Below, one piece after another: positions 1 to 49,651 of a stretch of 64,000 nt of DNA. Position numbers and translations under genes: made by a program. Position 1 is the first letter of the stretch. Every line of letters starts with the position of its first letter. Below the pieces are notes generated by a model. It did no database searches. It saw only the letters and a program-made list of their open reading frames with translations, and was not told where the DNA came from. The stretch is from a virus: the IMG/VR virus record IMGVR_UViG_3300048762_000330. The stretch is one strand, 5' to 3'.

Positions 1-71
1 ACATTTCATGTCACCTGGGATTCATATTCTCGGATCATTATTGAATTGAAACCCAAATCGGACTCAAACTA

Positions 72-581
72 ATGCGGTATCATGTCAATGTCATTGGGCG
101 CAAAGTCTTTGTCAATGGAGAAAAATGCGAACCTGTTAGTGAATACGAAGATAATCAGAGCGGCGGTTTTCGTTGGATAACCACAACTCCTGATGGAAAC
201 ATCATCAAACTAGATTTCACTCCAAGAAAATATCATTATGGTGACGATGATAATTACCTTTATCGTCAAACATGGGCCGAAATTCAATTGTGGAATATTC
301 TTGATAGTAAAGACAAGCGATATTTTCCAAAAATATTAGCTCACGGTATTCGTGGCCGCAATCTGTCTTGGCTAATTGAAGAAAATCTAAAGTTAGATCG
401 AAATTTCTATATGACCAAAGTCCAAACAAAAATCGTTCGGATGCTCATGAAAAAATATGGTATTTCCGACATCTGGCCATATGTCGGGAAAAAAAACGAC
501 AATTGGGGAGTGACAATTCGTGGTAGAGTAGTCATATTCGATTTTGGTTGCAACAAATTTAATGACTGTGCATATGACTGA
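72..581 (+). CDS. protein kinase-like fold protein
   Basis: C-terminal D-x-W...N-D-N-W-G...V-I-F-D-F-G resembles kinase catalytic and Mg-binding loops; 'EIQLW' and 'FPKIL' resemble the N-lobe. Confidence 0.45.
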   Translation: MRYHVNVIGRKVFVNGEKCEPVSEYEDNQSGGFRWITTTPDGNIIKLDFTPRKYHYGDDDNYLYRQTWAEIQLWNILDSKDKRYFPKILAHGIRGRNLSWLIEENLKLDRNFYMTKVQTKIVRMLMKKYGISDIWPYVGKKNDNWGVTIRGRVVIFDFGCNKFNDCAYD

Positions 582-789
582 AGGACAAACAATTCGATTT
601 CATGGTGGCTGGAACCACGAAGGTGTCCGTTGCGAAATTTGCAAATTTTCTTGCGTTGTAATTGAAAGGTATCAAATTTGGGATCAGGCGTCCCAAAGGT
701 TTGTCCTTCACTCCAATGATTTATGGGTTGCACGGCTTGAAACGGGCAGCTATGTAGTTGGGTATCCAGAACAGTTTGAAGCATCATGA
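574..789 (+). CDS. hypothetical protein
   Basis: ATG overlaps the upstream stop and its own stop overlaps the next ATG (coupled operon). Confidence 0.5.
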   Translation: MTEGQTIRFHGGWNHEGVRCEICKFSCVVIERYQIWDQASQRFVLHSNDLWVARLETGSYVVGYPEQFEAS

Positions 790-1151
790 TCGTAGCATTT
801 GATATCGGCGGTGTGCTTAGTCGCTACCCCGAAAAAATGAAAGCGTTAATGCACGCTCTCATGGCCGGTGGCGTTGATGTGCGGATTGTTACGGACATCA
901 ACCATTCAAAGGCAATTGAATTGCTGCATTTGAATGGATTTGGTTTTGTGCCAGACGAAAAGGTTCATTCTGGTGATTGGAGTGTCGATGGCGATCTGTG
1001 CAAAACAAATGTGTGTACTGAAATTGGGGTAGATTTTTTGATCGATGATCGGCCAGATTATTGTGCAGAAGGTGATTTTATTGGGATGGTTTTATCGCCT
1101 CGCCCACGGGTTTCATATTACGCAAAGACGTGGATGAATGGCCCGATTTGA
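786..1151 (+). CDS. HAD-superfamily hydrolase-like protein
   Basis: N-terminal AFDIGGVL (motif I-like) and FLIDDR (motif IV-like). Confidence 0.55.
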   Translation: MIVAFDIGGVLSRYPEKMKALMHALMAGGVDVRIVTDINHSKAIELLHLNGFGFVPDEKVHSGDWSVDGDLCKTNVCTEIGVDFLIDDRPDYCAEGDFIGMVLSPRPRVSYYAKTWMNGPI

Positions 1152-1183
1152 CACCACATCTTCGGTAGTGCTATACTTAGGGA

Positions 1184-1528
1184 ATGAGCAACACGAAGAA
1201 ATGTCTGTATGAAATTCTCGTTCCAACGATGCGGAACGACGGACGCCCCGTTCGCACTCGTTTTCATCGGGTTTGGGATGCGAAGGTGCGTGACATTTCA
1301 GGTGGTTTGACCGTCATGCCAGTTGCAAAAGGGCAATGGCTGTTTAAAGATAAACTGTTTCAAGAGCGCATGATACCTGTTCGGGTTATCGCTACGAGAT
1401 CCGAAATGGAAAAGATCATCGCCATGACGATGGAATATTACGAGCAATTAGCGGTTTTGGCATACAAAATTAGTGAAGAAGTCATTTTGCGTCATGCTGA
1501 TGGAAATTCAACTGAAGACATCGGCTAA
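1184..1528 (+). CDS. hypothetical phage protein
   Basis: clean ORF with AGGG-like RBS and upstream TTGACA...TATACT promoter. Confidence 0.6.
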   Translation: MSNTKKCLYEILVPTMRNDGRPVRTRFHRVWDAKVRDISGGLTVMPVAKGQWLFKDKLFQERMIPVRVIATRSEMEKIIAMTMEYYEQLAVLAYKISEEVILRHADGNSTEDIG

Positions 1529-1579
1529 AGCACATTTGATGGTATCCTGATAATTCAGGACAAAAAATAGGAGAACACC

Positions 1580-3331
1580 ATGGCAAAGTCAACCTATGCA
1601 ACTGCATTCGCAACCAAGAAAACTCCACAGACCCAAGCAATTCCGGGTCGTGAAGCGGAAATGAAACAGAATAACGCTGGTGGTGTAACATTCACCATCA
1701 CGCCGGTTCAGATGTTGGAACGTTTCCTGATCCTTGGCAGCAATGCGCCTACGTATTACTCGTCTGCACGCAAACTGACAACAGACAATGCTGACAACAT
1801 CCGTGCGTGTCTGAAGGCCGATGGAAAGCGAACGGTTGACAAAATCGTTGAAATCTCTGTAGCTGGCCGTGCGCCATCGAATGATCCTGCAATTTTCGCT
1901 CTTGCGGTAGCTTCAACACCCGAATTTGGATCTCAAGAAACCGCATTGTATGCTTTATCACAATTAACTAAAGTGTGTCGAATTGGTACCCATTTGTTTC
2001 ATTTTGCTGAATACTTAACCTCAATGAGAGGTTTTGGTCGTGCTGTAAAAAGAGAACTTGGTTTATGGTACACTGACAAGAACGAAGGTCAACTAGCATA
2101 TCAAATTCTTAAATATCAATCAAGAGATGGCTGGAGTCATAAAGATATTTTGTCATTGGCTCATGTAAAAACCTCTGATCCACTTAAATCAGCAGTTTTG
2201 GCTTGGAGTGCAATTGGTGGTCTAGATGCTTTGGCTGAAGCTGAAAAAAATTGGACCAGATCTACAAAAAAGTACAATCTTTCAGAACAAGAAATTAACC
2301 AACGTCGCCATCGTTATGGAAGTGCTTATTCTTTATTGAGTAGTGGTGTTGCGCCAAAGATTATTGTTGGGTACGAGGCAGCTAAAAAAGCAACAACTAC
2401 CAAAGAAATTGTAAAGATTATTCGGGACACTAAACTCAGTCATGAAATGATTCCTACTCAATTTAAAACAGAGCCAGAAGTGTGGATGGCATTGCTAGAA
2501 AATGGGATGCCACTTACCGCAATGGTTCGTAATTTAGGCCAGATGTCGAAAATCGGTCTTTTGAAACCGCTGTCAGATGCATCGAAGTTAGTTGTCTCTC
2601 GCTTGAGTGACCAGCAATTCATTCAGAAGAGCCGTCTACACCCGCTGGCAATCATGCTGGCACAGGGAACCTATCGTCAGGGTCATGGTATGCGTAGTGA
2701 TTCTACATGGGATGTGGTTCCGACTGTTGTTGACGCTTTGGAAGATGCGTTTTACTTGGCGTTCGCAAACGTGATTCCGACTGGCAAAAGTATCTTCATC
2801 GGTCTGGACATTTCAGGTTCGATGAGATGGTCTTACATTGGGGCAACCGGCATTTCAGCGGCGCAAGCCGGTGCTGCAATGGCTTTAGTTATCGCACGTA
2901 CTGAACCAAATTACGCTATCTACGGGTTCAGTACTTCGTTGATTGATTTGGGTATCACAAAGAAGGATACTCTTGAATCAGCAATGAAGAAGACTTCTGA
3001 TCGCAATTTTGGTGGCACCGATTGTGCTCAACCAATGGTCTACGCCGAAAAGAAGGGTTTGACAGTTGATTCTTTTGTTACAATTACAGATTCCGAGACA
3101 TGGGCGGGAAAAATACAGCCGATACAGGCTTTGCAGAGTTACCGCAAGGCACGTGGTAAGAATGATGTGTCTATGATAGTTGTCGGGATGACAAGCACTG
3201 GCTTTAGTATTGCGGACCCTCAAGACCCGTACAATTTGGATGTGGTTGGTTTTGATGCGGCGATACCGTCATTTATATCTGATTTTATTCGTGGCACCAA
3301 TACAGGAATTTCTGAAGATACCGAAGAATAA
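1580..3331 (+). CDS. rsr: Ro60/TROVE-domain RNA-binding protein
   Basis: N-terminal NNAGG-x-x-F, RFLILGS, HEAT-like TROVE region (KYQSRDGWSHKD), C-terminal vWA with MIDAS DISGSM, GGTDCAQPM, TDSETW, VVGFD; GGAG RBS. Confidence 0.95.
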   Translation: MAKSTYATAFATKKTPQTQAIPGREAEMKQNNAGGVTFTITPVQMLERFLILGSNAPTYYSSARKLTTDNADNIRACLKADGKRTVDKIVEISVAGRAPSNDPAIFALAVASTPEFGSQETALYALSQLTKVCRIGTHLFHFAEYLTSMRGFGRAVKRELGLWYTDKNEGQLAYQILKYQSRDGWSHKDILSLAHVKTSDPLKSAVLAWSAIGGLDALAEAEKNWTRSTKKYNLSEQEINQRRHRYGSAYSLLSSGVAPKIIVGYEAAKKATTTKEIVKIIRDTKLSHEMIPTQFKTEPEVWMALLENGMPLTAMVRNLGQMSKIGLLKPLSDASKLVVSRLSDQQFIQKSRLHPLAIMLAQGTYRQGHGMRSDSTWDVVPTVVDALEDAFYLAFANVIPTGKSIFIGLDISGSMRWSYIGATGISAAQAGAAMALVIARTEPNYAIYGFSTSLIDLGITKKDTLESAMKKTSDRNFGGTDCAQPMVYAEKKGLTVDSFVTITDSETWAGKIQPIQALQSYRKARGKNDVSMIVVGMTSTGFSIADPQDPYNLDVVGFDAAIPSFISDFIRGTNTGISEDTEE

Positions 3332-4077
3332 TTTTCTTCACGCCAATCATCAAGGAACTCACAAATATCCAACAATGCGAGTTCTTTGAAACATTCTGTT
3401 CTTCCTCCACTGATACAAGATGGAATGTAACGATAATGTGAAAATTTTTCTATAATATACTGTTCCAAATCGTACAGTTTGTTCAATGCACCATTTAATT
3501 GGAATAAACATGATATAGATAGTTTGTTGTGTCTCCATTTTATTGATCGTTTCGCTATTGATTCTTGTGTTATACCAATTTTAAAAAATGATTCAAAATT
3601 GGAACGAATTAAAATTAAATATAATATTGTGTTTTTATTTTCTCTTGTTTTTCTAACTTCAGGTTGAGAGTAATAACCTCGTGTAACACATTTTGGGCAT
3701 CCGTTTCCGTGCCAATGACCATCTGGTGTTTGTTTGAAGTCACCATGAATTGGACAAGTTATGATGACTTTTGTGGTGCATACAGTATATTTTGATTTGT
3801 CATAATTGTATTTGTTACCATGAATTAATCTACTACGCTGAATGAAAGAATCGGTATTTTTCTTTGTTGGGTGACATAATTTACAGCCCCGACCTCGAAG
3901 ATGTTCACCGGCAATCTGTTGAAAATTTCCATGAATTTTACATGTGATTATTATTGGTAATTTGGCTGTTATATAAAAACTCTTACTGTATTCATATTTG
4001 CTATTATGCACGCTGTTTGCTTTTATAATGAACTCTGTAGTAGTGCGTTTTTTATTTGAATAAATACTTTCAGACAT
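3220..4077 (-). CDS. putative homing endonuclease (repeated H..KY.Y / C..HG.F.Q / GC..C modules + GIY-YIG-like C-terminus)
   Basis: two DUF723-like repeats, then LYLI...FFKIGIT; starts at MSESIY behind a GGAGG RBS; overlaps the Ro60 3' end convergently. Confidence 0.7.
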   Translation of the reverse strand: MSESIYSNKKRTTTEFIIKANSVHNSKYEYSKSFYITAKLPIIITCKIHGNFQQIAGEHLRGRGCKLCHPTKKNTDSFIQRSRLIHGNKYNYDKSKYTVCTTKVIITCPIHGDFKQTPDGHWHGNGCPKCVTRGYYSQPEVRKTRENKNTILYLILIRSNFESFFKIGITQESIAKRSIKWRHNKLSISCLFQLNGALNKLYDLEQYIIEKFSHYRYIPSCISGGRTECFKELALLDICEFLDDWREENYSSVSSEIPVLVPRIKSDINDGIAASKPTTSKLYGS

Positions 4078-4155
4078 GATTTGCTTGCCCTCCAAGCGTT
4101 TGTGTTTAGAGTGAGCGGCGGGTACTGATTATACCTGCCACTCATTCGTATTTAT
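4078..4155 (-). promoter_or_regulatory. late promoter + 5' hairpin leader of the nuclease gene
   Basis: minus strand ATAAATA-N5-GAGTGGCAGGTA(loop)TACCCGCCGCTC-ACTC-TAAACACAA...GGAGG...ATG. Confidence 0.7.
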
Positions 4156-4196
4156 ACTTGACATTCGAAAATTTGATAGTATACTAAATAAAGTTT

Positions 4197-4385
4197 ATGA
4201 TCAAAGCAATTGTTAACGTACTGAAGTTCGATGGGACACTTGTTAGTCATAACGAGTTTGTAACTAATCAGGAAGCTGCTGACTTTATGGTTCCCTTTGT
4301 TATAGAGCATCGACAATTCGATATCAATTATCAGCCGATTGGGGCACTTGACAACCTTGATGAGTGTGCTATACTGAAAGAGTAA
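4197..4385 (+). CDS. hypothetical protein
   Basis: ORF just downstream of TTGACA/TATACT and CTAAATA. Confidence 0.5.
   Translation: MIKAIVNVLKFDGTLVSHNEFVTNQEAADFMVPFVIEHRQFDINYQPIGALDNLDECAILKE
4348..4375 (+). promoter_or_regulatory. sigma70-type promoter of the ncRNA operon
   Basis: TTGACA-16nt-TATACT with TG extended -10. Confidence 0.75.
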
Positions 4386-4438
4386 GAGTGAACGCCAAGC
4401 GATCCGCAAGGGACGTTAAACGACCCAAAGGAACGCAA

Positions 4439-4452
4439 GGATCTTTGACAAT
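4439..4452 (+). promoter_or_regulatory. boxA-like antitermination element
   Basis: GGATCTTTGACAAT resembles rrn-leader boxA and lies about 60 nt after the promoter and ahead of structured RNA. Confidence 0.5.
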
Positions 4453-4462
4453 AAAAATTTCA

Positions 4463-4658
4463 TGGTACGAGCCGCTGGCATTAAGGTTACCTACTTGATG
4501 AAGACCCGGTGAGAAGTTGAAACACCAAATCCGGGAATATTAGCAGTTAGTAACAAGTGCTCCGCAAGGAGTGTAGTAAACAATGCAATGCAAGGGAATG
4601 AAATGCCCAATTTGGAGGCAAGTAATTCCCGGCCTTGAGCTACAATTTGCTCGTACCA
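4463..4658 (+). ncRNA. Y RNA-like RNA 1 (long, with inserted multi-helix domain)
   Basis: 5' TGGTACGAGC pairs with 3' GCTCGTACCA; GAGC-C-G / TTTGCTC bulged helix; GGTTACCT motif; internal CCGGGAAT/ATTCCCGG helix and GCAA tetraloop hairpin. Confidence 0.7.
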
Positions 4659-4662
4659 AATA

Positions 4663-5050
4663 TTCATGTAGAGCTAAAGCTCCATGATCGAGTTCTTCTC
4701 GTCATTAAACCATGAGAAGACGTTCCTGAACTTAACGCATGAAGGAGGCTACTTTGATGCATAGTGGCAAGCGTGACTGTGAAGCAACCGCCGACGATGC
4801 AGAAGGCTATCGCTTCCAATACAGACCTTCTTGTCTACGATAAAGTTCAGCAGTAATTCGCCTGTAAAGCGGGGTCATTTGGTGATGGACGTTAACTAGC
4901 ACTGGTCATTATGGATTAAGACCTTAAATTAATCCTGGTCGCAAGGATCGACAGAAAAATATCCAGTCATTGCCGGTTGCGGCCTTAAATCGGATAGCCT
5001 TGGTGGTGGGCGATATCATCACCCGATTTTTGAATCTCCTTGCGGGAGTT
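4663..5050 (+). ncRNA. unassigned structured RNA domain A
   Basis: no credible ORF; stems TCATG/CATGA, CTTCTC/GAGAAG, CTGAACTT(4726)/AAGTTCAG(4843), GGATTAA/TTAATCC. Confidence 0.5.
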
Positions 5051-5057
5051 GTATTTG

Positions 5058-5119
5058 ACTGAGCCGAAAGTAAGGGTTACCTTCTCATAAAAAGTCTCCT
5101 TACAAAATATTTGCTCAGT
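5058..5119 (+). ncRNA. Y RNA-like RNA 2
   Basis: ACTGAGC/GCTCAGT terminal stem; GAGCCGAAAG...GGGTTACCT...AATATTTGCTC. Confidence 0.7.
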
Positions 5120-9007: not shown

Positions 9008-9036
9008 TTGACAAGCGTTTAAAAGCGTGCTAAACT
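9008..9036 (+). promoter_or_regulatory. sigma70-type promoter of the Y RNA/tRNA cluster
   Basis: TTGACA-17nt-TAAACT. Confidence 0.75.
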
Positions 9037-9050
9037 GGGTTTTGAATGAT

Positions 9051-9115
9051 GATCGAGCCGGAAGATTTGGGTTATCTTATAAAAATCAAACCTATGTCAA
9101 ACAATTTGTTCGGTC
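9051..9115 (+). ncRNA. Y RNA-like RNA 4
   Basis: GATCGAGC/GTTCGGTC stem with G-U covariation; GAGCCGGAAG...GGGTTATCT...ACAATTTGTTC. Confidence 0.7.
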
Positions 9116-9128
9116 TAAATATAGAATT

Positions 9129-9204
9129 GGGCCTGTAGTTTATTACACGAAAACACGTCCCCTGCAAGGATGAGAGTCGGGAGGGAAGCCCGGTGGGTCC
9201 ACCA
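9129..9204 (+). tRNA. tRNA-Ala(UGC), non-canonical
   Basis: 76-nt cloverleaf ending ACCA; G3:U70 pair; loop CCTGCAA; T-loop AGGGAAG; D-loop lacks GG. Confidence 0.75.
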
Positions 9205-9474
9205 GTTTAGAAAGGGTCTTGAGCCAGCAAGCCTTTCCGAATAATCTGGCTATGCAAAGGGTCTGGCTAATTTACGCAGAATGCAAAACAGACCCAGGCT
9301 AAACGCCTTGTAGTACAACGGCGCATCGGTACATCCGGTGCGTCGTTGAAAAGAGTATGATTATGACCTACTTTACAATGATTATGACCTACTTTACATT
9401 GAATTGGCGATTTACCAACGGAACATAACCGCTGTTGATAACCAGCGAGTTGTGTTCTTCACATTGATACACAC

Positions 9475-9550
9475 GGCTGGTAAGCTAATCTAGTGAAAGT
9501 ATCGGTCTGAAAAACCGAGGAGTTGAGAGCGTAACTCAAACCAGCCACCA
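9475..9550 (+). tRNA. tRNA-Phe(GAA), non-canonical T-loop
   Basis: GGCTGGT/ACCAGCC + ACCA; TCGGT-CTGAAAA-ACCGA; T-arm TTGAG-AGCGTAA-CTCAA. Confidence 0.85.
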
Positions 9551-9553
9551 TAT

Positions 9554-9631
9554 AGGGGACGAGTGTTACATAGACAGCATTACAGCCTCCAAAGCTGATA
9601 GGTCGGGCCGCAAGAGTCCGGTCCCCTGCCA
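9554..9631 (+). tRNA. tRNA-Trp(CCA), non-canonical T-loop
   Basis: AGGGGAC/GTCCCCT + GCCA; CAGC-CTCCAAA-GCTG; T-arm CGGGC-CGCAAGA-GTCCG. Confidence 0.8.
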
Positions 9632-9654: not shown

Positions 9655-10236
9655 ATGGAAAATGCAAATTTCATAATATCCACTCAATACGACGGAAAAC
9701 CTCGTAAACTTTACCGCCATCTGTGTTTGATATGTGATGTGGAATTTTGGGTTCCACGTCATAAAAAAAAGTTATGCTGCTCGCTTACCTGTCGTGGAAA
9801 AGCTAAAACAAAAAATCAAACTGTAATTCTTATTTGTACAAGATGCGGAATTGAATTTCACAAACGACAAAGCAGTTTAGTTAACAGCAAACATCAAAAA
9901 TTTTTTTGTTCAAGAAAATGTAAAGATTTAGCTCAAAGATTAGATGGTGATTGTCCAGAGATCAGACCTTCGCATTACGGAACCGGAACTGGGATTCATG
10001 GATATCGTTTAATAATGGCAAAAGAAATTAAAGATGGATGCATTGATTGTCATGAAACACAATCATATTTTTTGGAAGTTCATCATATAGATGGAAATCG
10101 AAACAATAACGCAAAATCTAATTTGGAGGTTGTTTGCGTGAAAGATCATCGTCGCCGTCATTTACAATTTATAAAGGACACATGGAATTTTAGTTCCCAT
10201 GTGTTAACACCCCGTGAAAATCTGGCTGAAGTTTGA
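9655..10236 (+). CDS. HNH endonuclease with N-terminal zinc-ribbon repeats
   Basis: CxxC...CSxxC repeats; C-terminal CIDC...LEVHHIDGNRNNN...NLEVVC..DH. Confidence 0.85.
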   Translation: MENANFIISTQYDGKPRKLYRHLCLICDVEFWVPRHKKKLCCSLTCRGKAKTKNQTVILICTRCGIEFHKRQSSLVNSKHQKFFCSRKCKDLAQRLDGDCPEIRPSHYGTGTGIHGYRLIMAKEIKDGCIDCHETQSYFLEVHHIDGNRNNNAKSNLEVVCVKDHRRRHLQFIKDTWNFSSHVLTPRENLAEV

Positions 10237-14259: not shown

Positions 14260-14330
14260 GACGGTACGCTCCGTTGTGTTTAGGCTGTATTGTGAAGCTC
14301 ATTACTTCACATACAGCCGTTTGTATTTAG
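14260..14330 (-). promoter_or_regulatory. HNH element leader (late promoter + hairpin + RBS hairpin)
   Basis: CTAAATA-CAAAC-GGCTGTATGTGAAG..CTTCACAATACAGCC-TAAACACAACGGAG..CCGTC-ATG. Confidence 0.85.
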
Positions 14331-14358
14331 CATCTATATAAAACCAGGAGTGTGTTAT

Positions 14359-15634: not shown

Positions 15635-15706
15635 TGCGCTCCAAAGGCAGTGCTTTGTTTAGGCTGTATGCGAACTAGAACTTCACATGCAGCCGTTTCT
15701 ATTTAG
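15635..15706 (-). promoter_or_regulatory. HNH element leader
   Basis: CTAAATA-GAAAC-GGCTGCATGTGAAG..TTCGCATACAGCC-TAAACAAAG. Confidence 0.85.
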
Positions 15707-15731
15707 CATCTATATATGTTATAATCATATT

Positions 15732-17579: not shown

Positions 17580-17686
17580 GTCTTTCAGCCTACATATGTA
17601 GCTCCGTCCTCTGACACCGGAAACGGGATGTCACGGTGACCACAAGTCGGACACTTCACATCGGGGTTCGATTCCCTGGAGAGCCA
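17580..17686 (+). ncRNA. tRNA-like RNA lacking a normal anticodon loop
   Basis: canonical T-arm CGGGG-TTCGATT-CCCTG; acceptor-like GTCTTTC/GAGAGCC with one mismatch; TGACA-CCG-GAAA-CGG-TGTCA in place of an anticodon; no CCA. Confidence 0.4.
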
Positions 17687-17696
17687 AAATTTTTGT

Positions 17697-17791
17697 TGGA
17701 CGGTCTTCTAATTTGGTAAGAAAACGCACTGTGGTCCGTAAGGACAAAATTAATGCGTAGAATTTGGGTCCGAATCCCAACTGTCCAGCCA
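17697..17791 (+). tRNA. tRNA-Asn(GUU) with an 18-nt insertion in the anticodon loop
   Basis: TGGACGG/CTGTCCA + GCCA (G73); D-arm TTCT/AGAA; ACGCA/TGCGT stem closes a 25-nt loop CTGT[GGTCCGTAAGGACAAAAT]TAA; T-arm TTGGG-TCCGAAT-CCCAA. Confidence 0.75.
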
Positions 17792-17890
17792 TTCTTTTAA
17801 ATTACCTTCTCGAAATCCAAAATTCAACAAAACCTCACCACAAAGTTGGATAAATTCTGGATGTGTGATATTGTGTAAGTAGGCGGAAAA

Positions 17891-22314: not shown

Positions 22315-22404
22315 GGACGAATGGGTGAGTCTGGTTAAAACCAATTGCCTGTAAAGCAATCCTCCTTCGGGAGTACAAAGGTTCAAATCCTTTTTCGTCC
22401 ACCA
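22315..22404 (+). tRNA. tRNA-Tyr(GUA) 1
   Basis: GGACGAA/TTCGTCC + ACCA; ATTGC-CTGTAAA-GCAAT; long variable arm with TTCG loop; TTCAAAT. Confidence 0.95.
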
Positions 22405-22414
22405 TCTTTCTTTT

Positions 22415-22503
22415 GGCGCATTAGACCGCTAAGGAGACGGCACCCGCTGTAACCGGGTTGTCCTTTATGGACCCGAGAGGTTCGATACCTTTATGCGCCA
22501 CCA
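22415..22503 (+). tRNA. tRNA-Tyr(GUA) 2
   Basis: GGCGCAT/ATGCGCC + ACCA; ACCCG-CTGTAAC-CGGGT; long variable arm; TTCGATA. Confidence 0.92.
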
Positions 22504-25141: not shown

Positions 25142-25213
25142 GATGGCTAACTCCATTGTGTTTAGGCTGCATTGCGAAGGTAAGAACTTCACATGCAGCC
25201 GTTTCTATTTATA
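25142..25213 (-). promoter_or_regulatory. HNH element leader
   Basis: TATAAATA-GAAAC-GGCTGCATGTGAAG..CTTCGCAATGCAGCC-TAAACACAATGGAG. Confidence 0.85.
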
Positions 25214-25216
25214 CTC

Positions 25217-26977
25217 TTACTTCAATCCGCCGATTTGAACCAAATTTGGTTTTGGTTTTGCATTCAAGTGAACAATCCCATTCTGATCCACGGTATTTGC
25301 AAAGTGGCCTGCTGTTTCGTTACCTATTCCTTTTAAAGCAAGTCCTGAAATTACACCTTGAGTTCTTGGCACACCAATCTGTTCATGTCTTTGAAAAATA
25401 TTATCGTCGGCATCGCCCGCAGCAACCGGGTACATTTTTCCGGTGGCATCATCTTGGTAAAATTTTGCTTGGGGTTCATGCTTGCCCCTGCGGTACACAG
25501 ATGCAACTACACCGCCATTCTCCAAGTGTTTGACAACTTCTTTATCATTACTTTCATCGTGACCCGAGCCGGTATGAGACAAAGCTAAATGGTAATTCTG
25601 AGGCTGATCTTTGTGGCCTAAGCGCCCGTGCATCTTTGTGTAGTCGTAAAAAGTTGTATTTGGATTCTCAGGATCATTTCCCAAATGCGAGTGAAAAAAT
25701 TCTTTCGGCATCAAATGTTCATACGGTAAGTCGGATGTAACATTCATACGAATACCAGATTTATAGTGAACAGGTTGGCCTGCTTTGTCAAAGACAGGTT
25801 CCGTTTTTGGAGCCATTATAGGTTTGCCAGACTTCCGATCAACTTTTCCGGTGGGTTGCATTGCTGGCTTGCCATCTGGACCCATCATCGGTCTTTGGAC
25901 TTGCGCTTCCGAAGCTCCCTTTTCATTGTCCAGAATTTCTTGATGCATAATTCGAGCAGCTTCTTCCGGGTGTTCGTGCATAAAGTGTGTACGCAGTAAT
26001 TTGGCTCTTGTTGTTGAAAATGGAAAATTGACATTGCCGCCAGCAGTGAGACCTAAACAACCTTTTCTGCATTCAGAAGAAGCATTTGGACACATGTCAT
26101 ATTCTTTTCCGGTTGTTGGGTGCTGATATCCAGAATGCAAACCAGGACTCAAAGAAAGACCAATAGTTTTGTAACCTACACCAGCACTTGAAAGTGTTTT
26201 GTGGTTTACACCAAACATATTAGATCCTTTGGCTGTAGCTGGACTCAACTTACCATGTTGCACAAGATGATTCACAAACATCTTTCTTGCATCTTGATAT
26301 TTCTTTTGCCGAGTAGGTTCATCTTCCTGTGCAACTTTTTGACCTGTTTTTGGATCAACACCAAATGCAGCATGGAAACCTCTTCGCATATACTCAAACG
26401 GGTTTGACATGGCTTGAGCTTCGTAATGCTTGCCTTGGGCATGTAGAATTCCTGCTTGTTGCCCTCTAGCATTCATTCTTGCTCTAGCTTCATTTTTTAT
26501 ACGTTCTATTTCTTGAACACCATGTTGTTTTTTTGGATCGACGGCTCCACTTTTCCGTTGTTGAAGCCATGCAGCCCGTCTTTCTTTGGCTCTGGCTGCG
26601 GGATCGGCTGATACAGGTTGTTTAAGTGCAACCTTTTTTGGCTTCATTGCCGGTTTTGCAACAGCAGCAGGTTCTTCAGTAAGATCAAAGAATCCTTTAT
26701 ATGGTTCTAGTTCTTCATTCACACTTGCTTCGCCATATATTTTATGGGATTGACCGGGCATGTAAGAAGGGTGAATCATCGGAGAAGAAAGATGGTGAAG
26801 GAACCGACCGACTGTGCTGTCCATCGGATCATCTTCTTCTGATTCTTCAGGCTCTTCCGGTTCTTCGTCTTTTTGAACTGGATTGACAGCTTCGATAAGC
26901 TCTGGTTCAAGTTCAAGAATAGCGTCTAGAAAAGTCGTGCCGAAGAATTTTTTATAATCTTCTGTTGTTAAAGCCAT
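25217..26977 (-). CDS. GP88-like protein with long acidic/basic N-terminal extension
   Basis: C-terminal LSLSPG..CPNAS..CRKGCL..AG..RAK...IRMNVTSD..FYDYTK..NYHL..S; ATAAATA-N5-ATG. Confidence 0.55.
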   Translation of the reverse strand: MALTTEDYKKFFGTTFLDAILELEPELIEAVNPVQKDEEPEEPEESEEDDPMDSTVGRFLHHLSSPMIHPSYMPGQSHKIYGEASVNEELEPYKGFFDLTEEPAAVAKPAMKPKKVALKQPVSADPAARAKERRAAWLQQRKSGAVDPKKQHGVQEIERIKNEARARMNARGQQAGILHAQGKHYEAQAMSNPFEYMRRGFHAAFGVDPKTGQKVAQEDEPTRQKKYQDARKMFVNHLVQHGKLSPATAKGSNMFGVNHKTLSSAGVGYKTIGLSLSPGLHSGYQHPTTGKEYDMCPNASSECRKGCLGLTAGGNVNFPFSTTRAKLLRTHFMHEHPEEAARIMHQEILDNEKGASEAQVQRPMMGPDGKPAMQPTGKVDRKSGKPIMAPKTEPVFDKAGQPVHYKSGIRMNVTSDLPYEHLMPKEFFHSHLGNDPENPNTTFYDYTKMHGRLGHKDQPQNYHLALSHTGSGHDESNDKEVVKHLENGGVVASVYRRGKHEPQAKFYQDDATGKMYPVAAGDADDNIFQRHEQIGVPRTQGVISGLALKGIGNETAGHFANTVDQNGIVHLNAKPKPNLVQIGGLK

Positions 26978-28571: not shown

Positions 28572-28639
28572 GACGGGCACTCCGTTGTGTTTAGGCTGCT
28601 TGAGAAGGTCACACTTCCCATGCAGCCGTTACTATTTAG
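28572..28639 (-). promoter_or_regulatory. HNH element leader
   Basis: CTAAATA-GTAAC-GGCTGCATGGGAAG..CTTCTCAAGCAGCC-TAAACACAACGGAG. Confidence 0.85.
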
Positions 28640-28692
28640 CATTGCAAAAACTATTGACATCTTTCAGCGTTTGTGATATGCTGAAATCTGCT

Positions 28693-48525: not shown

Positions 48526-48595
48526 GACGGGTCACTCCGTTGTGTTTAGGCTGCTTGCGAAGGTCAATACTTCACATGCAGCCGTTTGTATTTAG
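48526..48595 (-). promoter_or_regulatory. HNH element leader
   Basis: CTAAATA-CAAAC-GGCTGCATGTGAAG..CTTCGCAAGCAGCC-TAAACACAACGGAG. Confidence 0.85.
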
Positions 48596-48632
48596 CGCTT
48601 GACAAATCTTAATTCTATGGTTTAATAAAATT

Positions 48633-49535: not shown

Positions 49536-49607
49536 TGCGCTCTCCAAAGTGCTTTGTTCAGGCTGTGTGCGAAGGTCAATACTTCACTCACAGCCGTCTC
49601 TATTTAG
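49536..49607 (-). promoter_or_regulatory. HNH element leader
   Basis: CTAAATA-GAGAC-GGCTGTGAGTGAAG..CTTCGCACACAGCC-TGAACAAAG. Confidence 0.85.
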
Positions 49608-49651
49608 CACTAACCAAACACTCAAACAAACGACCTTGAAGATATAAATAA

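Follow-up and report, generated by a model that had tools for sequence, protein, structure and literature searches.

Predicted phage tRNA genes for alanine, phenylalanine and tryptophan carry A18 with G55 in place of G18 with U55

G18, U55 and C56 are usually presented as almost invariant positions of tRNA. The canonical elbow is formed by a contact between G18 and U55 and by a G19–C56 pair (PMC7912444, PMC10424219), and G18, U54, U55 and Y60 are counted among the conserved or semi-conserved positions (PMC10424219, PMC7912444). A stretch of virus DNA of 64,000 nucleotides, called the window below, belongs to a large phage and contains three tRNA-like genes with neither the GG of the D-loop nor the TTC of the T-loop. 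This raises the question of whether they are decayed genes, mimics of tRNA or tRNAs with another elbow. The genes are as follows:

9129–9204, plus strand: tRNA-Ala(UGC), 76 nt, with G3:U70, A73 and encoded CCA; elbow A18 (9147)/G55 (9183) with a flipped C19 (9148)–G56 (9184); other loop bases A54, A58 and G60, U15/G48 and C33 (9162)
9475–9550, plus strand: tRNA-Phe(GAA), 76 nt, with U20, A73 and encoded CCA; elbow A18 (9492)/G55 (9529) with G19–C56; other core bases A54/U58, A60, A8 and U15/G48
9554–9631, plus strand: tRNA-Trp(CCA), 78 nt, with A1–U72, G2–C71, G3–C70, G73 and encoded CCA; elbow A18 (9572)/G55 (9610) with G19–C56; other core bases C54/A58, A60, G8/U14 and an A27.A43 mismatch

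The coordinates, lengths and encoded CCA agree with a first-pass annotation of the window, and re-reading of the letters also confirmed its T-loops (AGGGAAG in Ala, AGCGTAA in Phe, CGCAAGA in Trp), the lack of GG in the D-loops and the G3:U70 and C33 of Ala. All three genes form a four-stem cloverleaf with standard spacing and end in a 3' NCCA, and their identity bases match the anticodon. These identity-base assignments for Ala, Phe and Trp rest on E. coli rules. The first-pass annotation did not mention that the loop changes are matched: A18 is found with G55, not G18 with U55, in all three genes, and C19 with G56 in Ala. Position 19–56 is G–C in Phe and Trp and C–G in Ala, a purine is retained at position 57 in each gene, and none of them has U54–A58 together with a pyrimidine at position 60. 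The G8/U14 combination of tRNA-Trp is rare (2/1477), and of the three assignments that of tRNA-Trp is the weakest.

As had been stated earlier, the remaining tRNA-like genes in the window (at 22315, 22415, ~17600 and ~17700) retain TTC or TCC. The element at 22415–22503 was called Tyr(GUA) by ARAGORN and was not reported by Rfam; it looks Leu/Ser-like in its variable arm and long D-loop. The elements at ~17598–17690 and 17697–17794 are irregular and tRNA-like, with TTC and TCC T-loops.

The ARAGORN run proposed in the first-pass annotation found 0/3 genes. The Rfam model RF00005 (gathering threshold of 29 bits) gave 42.8 bits for Phe, and Ala and Trp were unreported even at E 5. A cloverleaf scanner that scores stems and spacing, and uses no D- or T-loop consensus except one point for A58, gave 33–34.5 for the three genes; on both strands of 20 windows of 64 kb made by Markov resampling, its maximum was 31.5. 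After in silico restoration of GG and TTC, ARAGORN accepted Ala and Phe, and Trp only at a lowered threshold. Because this restoration brings the genes back, the loops are the main cause of the ARAGORN miss. Within the same phage and mobile-element loci, ARAGORN found 914/933 U55 tRNAs but 66/199 G55 tRNAs, so phage tRNA sets are undercounted. The minimum-free-energy fold of Ala is not a cloverleaf, and this kind of folding is uninformative for Ala.

Then, the D- and T-loops of 1,404 distinct tRNAs were compared. They came from some 200 loci of phages and mobile elements, and pattern-selected genes were left out. In this unselected set, where kinship among the sequences inflates the counts and where the loci had been picked for holding one G55 tRNA, so that frequencies are not phage-wide rates, T-loop U55–C56 was accompanied by D-loop GG in 1,033/1,078 tRNAs and G55–C56 by AG in 217/227 (GG in 13). 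The background of D-loop AG among U55–C56 tRNAs was 119/1,078. The predicted 19–56 pair covaries as well: U55–U56 occurs with GA (38/42), U55–A56 with GT (10/12), G55–A56 with AT (7/8), U55–G56 with GC (5/6) and G55–G56 with AC (1/1). Mismatched states are scarce (GG/G55 in 5 and AG/U55 in 9 of about 1,000). Two one-sided tests gave the same picture, since Phe genes picked by the A18 D arm alone had G55 in 11/11 cases and other Trp genes picked by G55 alone had D-loop AG in 23/23. Matched variation was also seen at other core contacts (19–56, 54–58, 54–60 and 15–48); a purine at 54 accompanies a purine at 60, and 54–58 is U–A, A–U, G–G, A–A or C–A. G55 was seen in 33 anticodon types, and its spread over isotypes indicates several origins. 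Stem mismatches are similarly few in both kinds (0.39 in G55 versus 0.33 in U55 tRNAs), and CCA is encoded about equally often (88% versus 85%). The comparison of D- and T-loops in homologues had been named in the first-pass annotation as a way to check its reading, with random drift as the mark of pseudogenes; the loop changes were found to be matched, not random.

For the Phe type, 77 distinct homologous A18/G55 cloverleaves were found. In an alignment of 20 sequences, 98.5% of the stem cells are paired, with 123 two-sided changes, and the stem covariation is 0.856 versus 0.20 in shuffled and at most 0.17 in slid alignments. A canonical Phe was also present in only 3/77 Phe-type loci; most loci are fragments, so the lack of a canonical Phe nearby means little outside G001. 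Exact-motif searches of viral contigs for close homologues of the window Ala and Trp gave nothing or chance matches. About half of the Trp pattern matches failed the scanner (some of them chance matches, some odd tRNAs) and were excluded. The pattern matches L122, L123 and L126–L128 were not cloverleaves, and BLAST matches to Salmonella phage Munch were due to chance and lay inside a CDS. A Logan contig identical to positions 1–5112 of the window ends before the three tRNAs.

Sisters with G18·U55 on a similar scaffold were found in cultured phages for all three genes. The Phe sister belongs to Pseudomonas phage Boevelstad (PQ464592), with a D arm and T-loop identical to those of the window Phe except for G18 and U55. 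Boevelstad was found with an A18/G55 query, and further cultured phages were found with the Boevelstad query, which leans towards G18/U55. The Phe genes of Boevelstad, vB_PseuGesM_254, phiK7A1, UNO-G1W1, Bacillus phage Kioshi and the T5-like phage GSW6 have A54, C56, G57, U58 and A60 as in the window Phe, and those of Boevelstad and 254 additionally match it in the D arm, A8 and U15/G48. This A54-type Phe of cultured phages keeps G18 and U55, and the window Phe differs from it at exactly these two loop positions. In cultured Pseudomonas phages, tRNA-Phe genes with the A54 T-loop were seen unannotated (L199 3495–3570; L201 and L202; L209 4990–5071).

The Ala sister, also in Boevelstad, has the D stem, the anticodon stem and nearly the whole acceptor in common with the window gene and carries GG and TTC. 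The A18–C19/G55–G56 elbow together with C33 was found on other stems in a metagenome Ala (L197/L198), using a pattern that fixed the elbow and permitted C or T at position 33, and an Arg gene with the same elbow was met unselected. C33 recurs among other Ala(UGC) genes and Ile genes. The Trp sister is an unannotated gene in GSW6 with an almost identical D arm, GG and TTC; its acceptor stem is weaker, with two U.U mismatches. The GSW6 record has no tRNA annotated across the stretch fetched. In two phage clusters, tRNAs with an amber anticodon (CUA) were noticed (L008 2902–2977 and L009 9816–9892), which suggests recoding or suppression.

The closest relative found is a virus contig of 405,631 bases rated complete, whose Ro60 is 67% identical to that of the window. 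It has a near-full tRNA set, in which the G55 Phe is the sole Phe found. Of its 35 scanned tRNAs, 5 have G55, all with D-loop AG, and 26 retain TTC. It shares the leader and the G55 Phe with the window, but its adjoining Trp, and its Ala after a Y-like RNA, are canonical, and a jointly conserved Ala–Phe–Trp unit was rejected on this ground. Two tRNA-Ala-like genes of the relative (L001 2834–2906 and 2998–3076, minus strand) lie by Y-like RNAs and have canonical elbows and irregular stems, one with a bulged acceptor.

Over 57 independent locus groups, G55 was clumped: 19 groups had none versus 3.1 expected, and in 8/57 it occurred in at least half of the tRNAs (X2 323, df 56). This points to some genome-level pressure, which is incomplete in this lineage. 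The first-pass annotation had spoken of coordinated elbow remodelling. Selection on the elbow is supported by the covariation. Each single tRNA shows coordination, and so, as a statistical trend, do genomes, but the trio as such does not. Several virus contigs were mostly G55, namely L166 (14/15), L181 (16/20), L075 (7/10), L042 (6/9), L137 (6/9) and L109 (7/11).

The window encodes Ro60 (1580–3331), an ADP-ribosylglycohydrolase and a CCA-adding enzyme. Around the tRNAs, the order is a sigma-70-like site, a Y-RNA-like stem, Ala, a spacer, a hairpin leader, Phe, Trp and an HNH gene:

9008–9036, plus strand: sigma-70-like promoter (TTGACA, 17 nt, TG-TAAACT; consensus match only), probable start of an RNA operon
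9051–9115, plus strand: Y-RNA-like stem ('Y RNA 4'), ending 13 nt before tRNA-Ala; fold z −2.2
9358–9398, plus strand: exact tandem duplication of 20 nt; it overlaps a promoter-like site (9372–9400, weak) ahead of the Phe–Trp unit
9404–9458, plus strand: conserved leader with a small and a long hairpin, separated from tRNA-Phe by 16 nt
9655–10236, plus strand: HNH endonuclease ORF directly after tRNA-Trp, with weak Pfam HNH_3/HNH matches; probably selfish

The Y-RNA-like stem belongs to a repeat family with other members at ~4468, 5061 and 5137 in the window and four copies in the relative (L001), and its motifs recur in two of the window copies and in two from the relative. Besides the terminal stem, the repeats in the window and L001 have an internal GGTTAYCT motif in common. 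The Rfam search gave no Y RNA match. The stem, lying downstream of the Ro60 gene, is a candidate Y RNA, and its binding by Ro60 is putative. The leader is also present in the relative (L001 1305–1361, minus strand), where the fold is the same and the stem sequence different (fold z −3.9 and −6.6 for the two leaders); this two-hairpin leader has no Rfam match. At about the matching place in the relative, a TTGACA...TATAAA is visible by eye, and it fails the promoter scanner. The spacer at 9205–9345 has possible long stems that are not conserved in the relative, and 9205–9302 alone folds no better than shuffled sequences. Other hairpin leaders are repeated at 14278–14341, 15660–15716, 25160–25223, 28590–28649, 48543–48606 and 49555–49618 of the window, where they precede minus-strand ORFs that form a family and contain internal repeats of 45 nt. 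A convincing terminator was not found in the Y-RNA/tRNA stretch. The co-transcription with the Y-like RNA that had been suggested earlier is plausible from this layout, and a weak second promoter-like site precedes the Phe leader.

Comparison with known systems places the genes as follows. With canonical class I elongator tRNAs (RF00005) they share the cloverleaf geometry, a 7-nt T-loop closed by 53–61, the purine at 57 and a Watson–Crick 19–56, as well as anticodons, discriminators, CCA and synthetase identity bases. They differ in replacing G18, U54, U55 and Y60, and Ala is also without G19, C56 and U33. Eukaryotic initiator tRNA retains G18 and U55. Its T-loop with A54–A58 (PMC7912444) indicates that A54 is tolerated, and the window Ala likewise has A54/A58; however, the window genes are bacterial-type elongators, unlike this initiator. 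Suppressors selected in the laboratory from randomised D and T loops, in the work of Zagryadskaya in 2003 and 2004 and of Doyon in 2004, reportedly indicate that non-standard combinations can work in E. coli; those suppressors are artificial, whereas the window genes are natural. The genes do not fall under the YrlA type of Y RNA, which combines a Ro60-binding stem with a tRNA-like body whose T-loop is canonical, as they have plain 7-bp acceptor stems, CCA and no TTC, and the Y-like stem is separate. Judged by all these features, the genes are tRNAs, but not canonical-elbow tRNAs.

The characteristics listed allow us to assume, with high but not full confidence, that all three genes encode functional phage tRNAs and that these follow a second design of the elbow. 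The sequence comparison shows a joint replacement of G18 and U55 by A18 and G55, with stems, anticodons, discriminators and CCA kept, and the Watson–Crick cap at 19–56 is retained as G–C in Phe and Trp and as a flipped C–G in Ala. On the geometry suggested by covariation, the purine at 18 would still insert in the T-loop and contact G55, in which case the L shape and the flat 19–56 face for RNase P and the ribosome would survive. The RNAs would then be released from a transcript shared with the Y RNA, aminoacylated by synthetases of the host and employed in translation. TruB acts on U55 and TrmA on U54 (PMC7430675), and as U54 and U55 are absent, these tRNAs can bear neither m5U54 nor pseudouridine 55 and have no UUC site for T-loop nucleases.

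If the genes are working tRNAs, an elbow that is equally good or independent of modification is nearly an even bet as the reason for the swap, escape from host enzymes that read the T-loop is a real but lesser contender, and some other reason is unlikely. In its full form, the first of these explanations holds that A18.G55 serves just as well as an elbow and may be stable when TruB and TrmA do not modify it, and that weakly selected, often-exchanged tRNA genes switch between states with no role in defence. The patchy distribution of G55 over isotypes, its mixture with U55 inside genomes and the matched variation of the other core contacts argue for it, as does the absence of the TruB and TrmA targets (PMC7430675). 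Nevertheless, a switch requires two matched changes with rare mismatched states, and the loci in which 14/15 or 16/20 tRNAs of differing types are switched point to genome-level pressure. This explanation is tentative, falling short of an even chance overall.

Phage tRNAs can escape host anticodon nucleases, in the context of PARIS/AriB, PrrC and retron PtuAB, and the phage tRNAs known to do so alter the anticodon arm. The window genes alter the elbow, not the anticodon arm, and their resistance to nucleases is putative. The publication that names PARIS/AriB, PrrC and retron PtuAB (PMC13462974) describes Cash, a type III CRISPR Schlafen effector that cuts the T-loop UUC; single U54 or U55 changes abolish cutting, and the targeting of phage tRNAs by Cash is called open there. 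Cash is a concrete candidate for the host tRNA-targeting defence that the first-pass annotation supposed to be evaded; such evasion is plausible. Loss of U54 and U55 may confer resistance to T-loop UUC nucleases, so that translation outlasts the destruction of host tRNAs, which would be a reason for the working tRNAs and not an alternative to them. Cash requires U54 and U55, and all three genes are without both; G55 is clustered by genome (57 locus groups, X2 323), and the window carries the Ro60 and CCA-adding enzyme genes. On the other hand, Cash cut 28 E. coli tRNAs, and a few protected types should not rescue translation. TTC is kept in most tRNAs of the relative (26/35) and in the window Tyr genes, and the anticodon loop of tRNA-Trp still has UC, a motif that Cash also cuts there. 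General UUC avoidance was tested in the G55 loci and was unsupported: other UUC-losing variants were not enriched (68/459 vs 52/307, p 0.48; rho −0.05). Counter-defence was ranked slightly below the neutral or modification-independent design because of the few tRNAs protected, the negative UUC-avoidance test and the UC of Trp, and as an explanation of these genes it is possible rather than probable. The broader proposal that A18.G55 elbows with optional 19–56 flips are a widespread, largely unannotated phage counter-defence, giving working tRNAs uncut by Cash-like nucleases, is held with the same reserve.

Bacterial Y RNAs can be tRNA-shaped, and the genes adjoin Y-like RNAs downstream of Ro60; together with C33 instead of U33 in Ala, this could indicate decoys or non-translating tRNA mimics that absorb a host toxin, a synthetase or Ro60, as the first-pass annotation had also considered. 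That idea fits poorly and is very unlikely, since a decoy should retain the recognised motif, and these genes have lost the motif of T-loop readers and kept the synthetase identity bases, consistent with the anticodons; moreover, the Phe type lies mostly within ordinary tRNA clusters, not by Ro60, and C33 is not peculiar to the window Ala. An equally improbable sole function is that of processing marks, in which the Y-like RNA would be freed at its 3' end by RNase P at Ala, and the hairpin leader by a cut at Phe. The spacing agrees with it, as Ala begins 13 nt past the Y-like stem, a Y-like RNA of the relative directly precedes a tRNA-Ala with a bulged acceptor, and the leader hairpin adjoins Phe in both phages. 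However, a role in processing would by itself leave anticodon loops and identity bases free to change, and most Phe homologues are neighboured by other tRNAs; the function can hold as a side role. Decay into pseudogenes, in line with the ARAGORN rejection of all three, the Ala fold and the one stem mismatch of Trp, is the most doubtful explanation, given the matched changes in both loops, the intact stems and CCA, the independent recurrence of the same states and the strong conservation of the Phe family, for which this reading is already largely refuted.

A limited literature search found no description of a natural A18–G55 swap, and an earlier mention is possible. The window contributes the doubly swapped Ala, a G18/U55 sister in a cultured phage for each of the three genes and the negative UUC-avoidance test. 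The finding should surprise a tRNA specialist and is directly testable. Each gene forms a ready matched pair with its sister, suited to the questions of whether Cash cuts phage tRNAs and whether tRNA requires T54/pseudouridine-55 chemistry at all. If the counter-defence explanation is true, there would be a hidden layer of phage tRNA genes. Since a matched natural alternative occurs in 33 anticodon types, the elbow appears to have a second solution, and Ala suggests that all four bases at the tip of the elbow are exchangeable at once.
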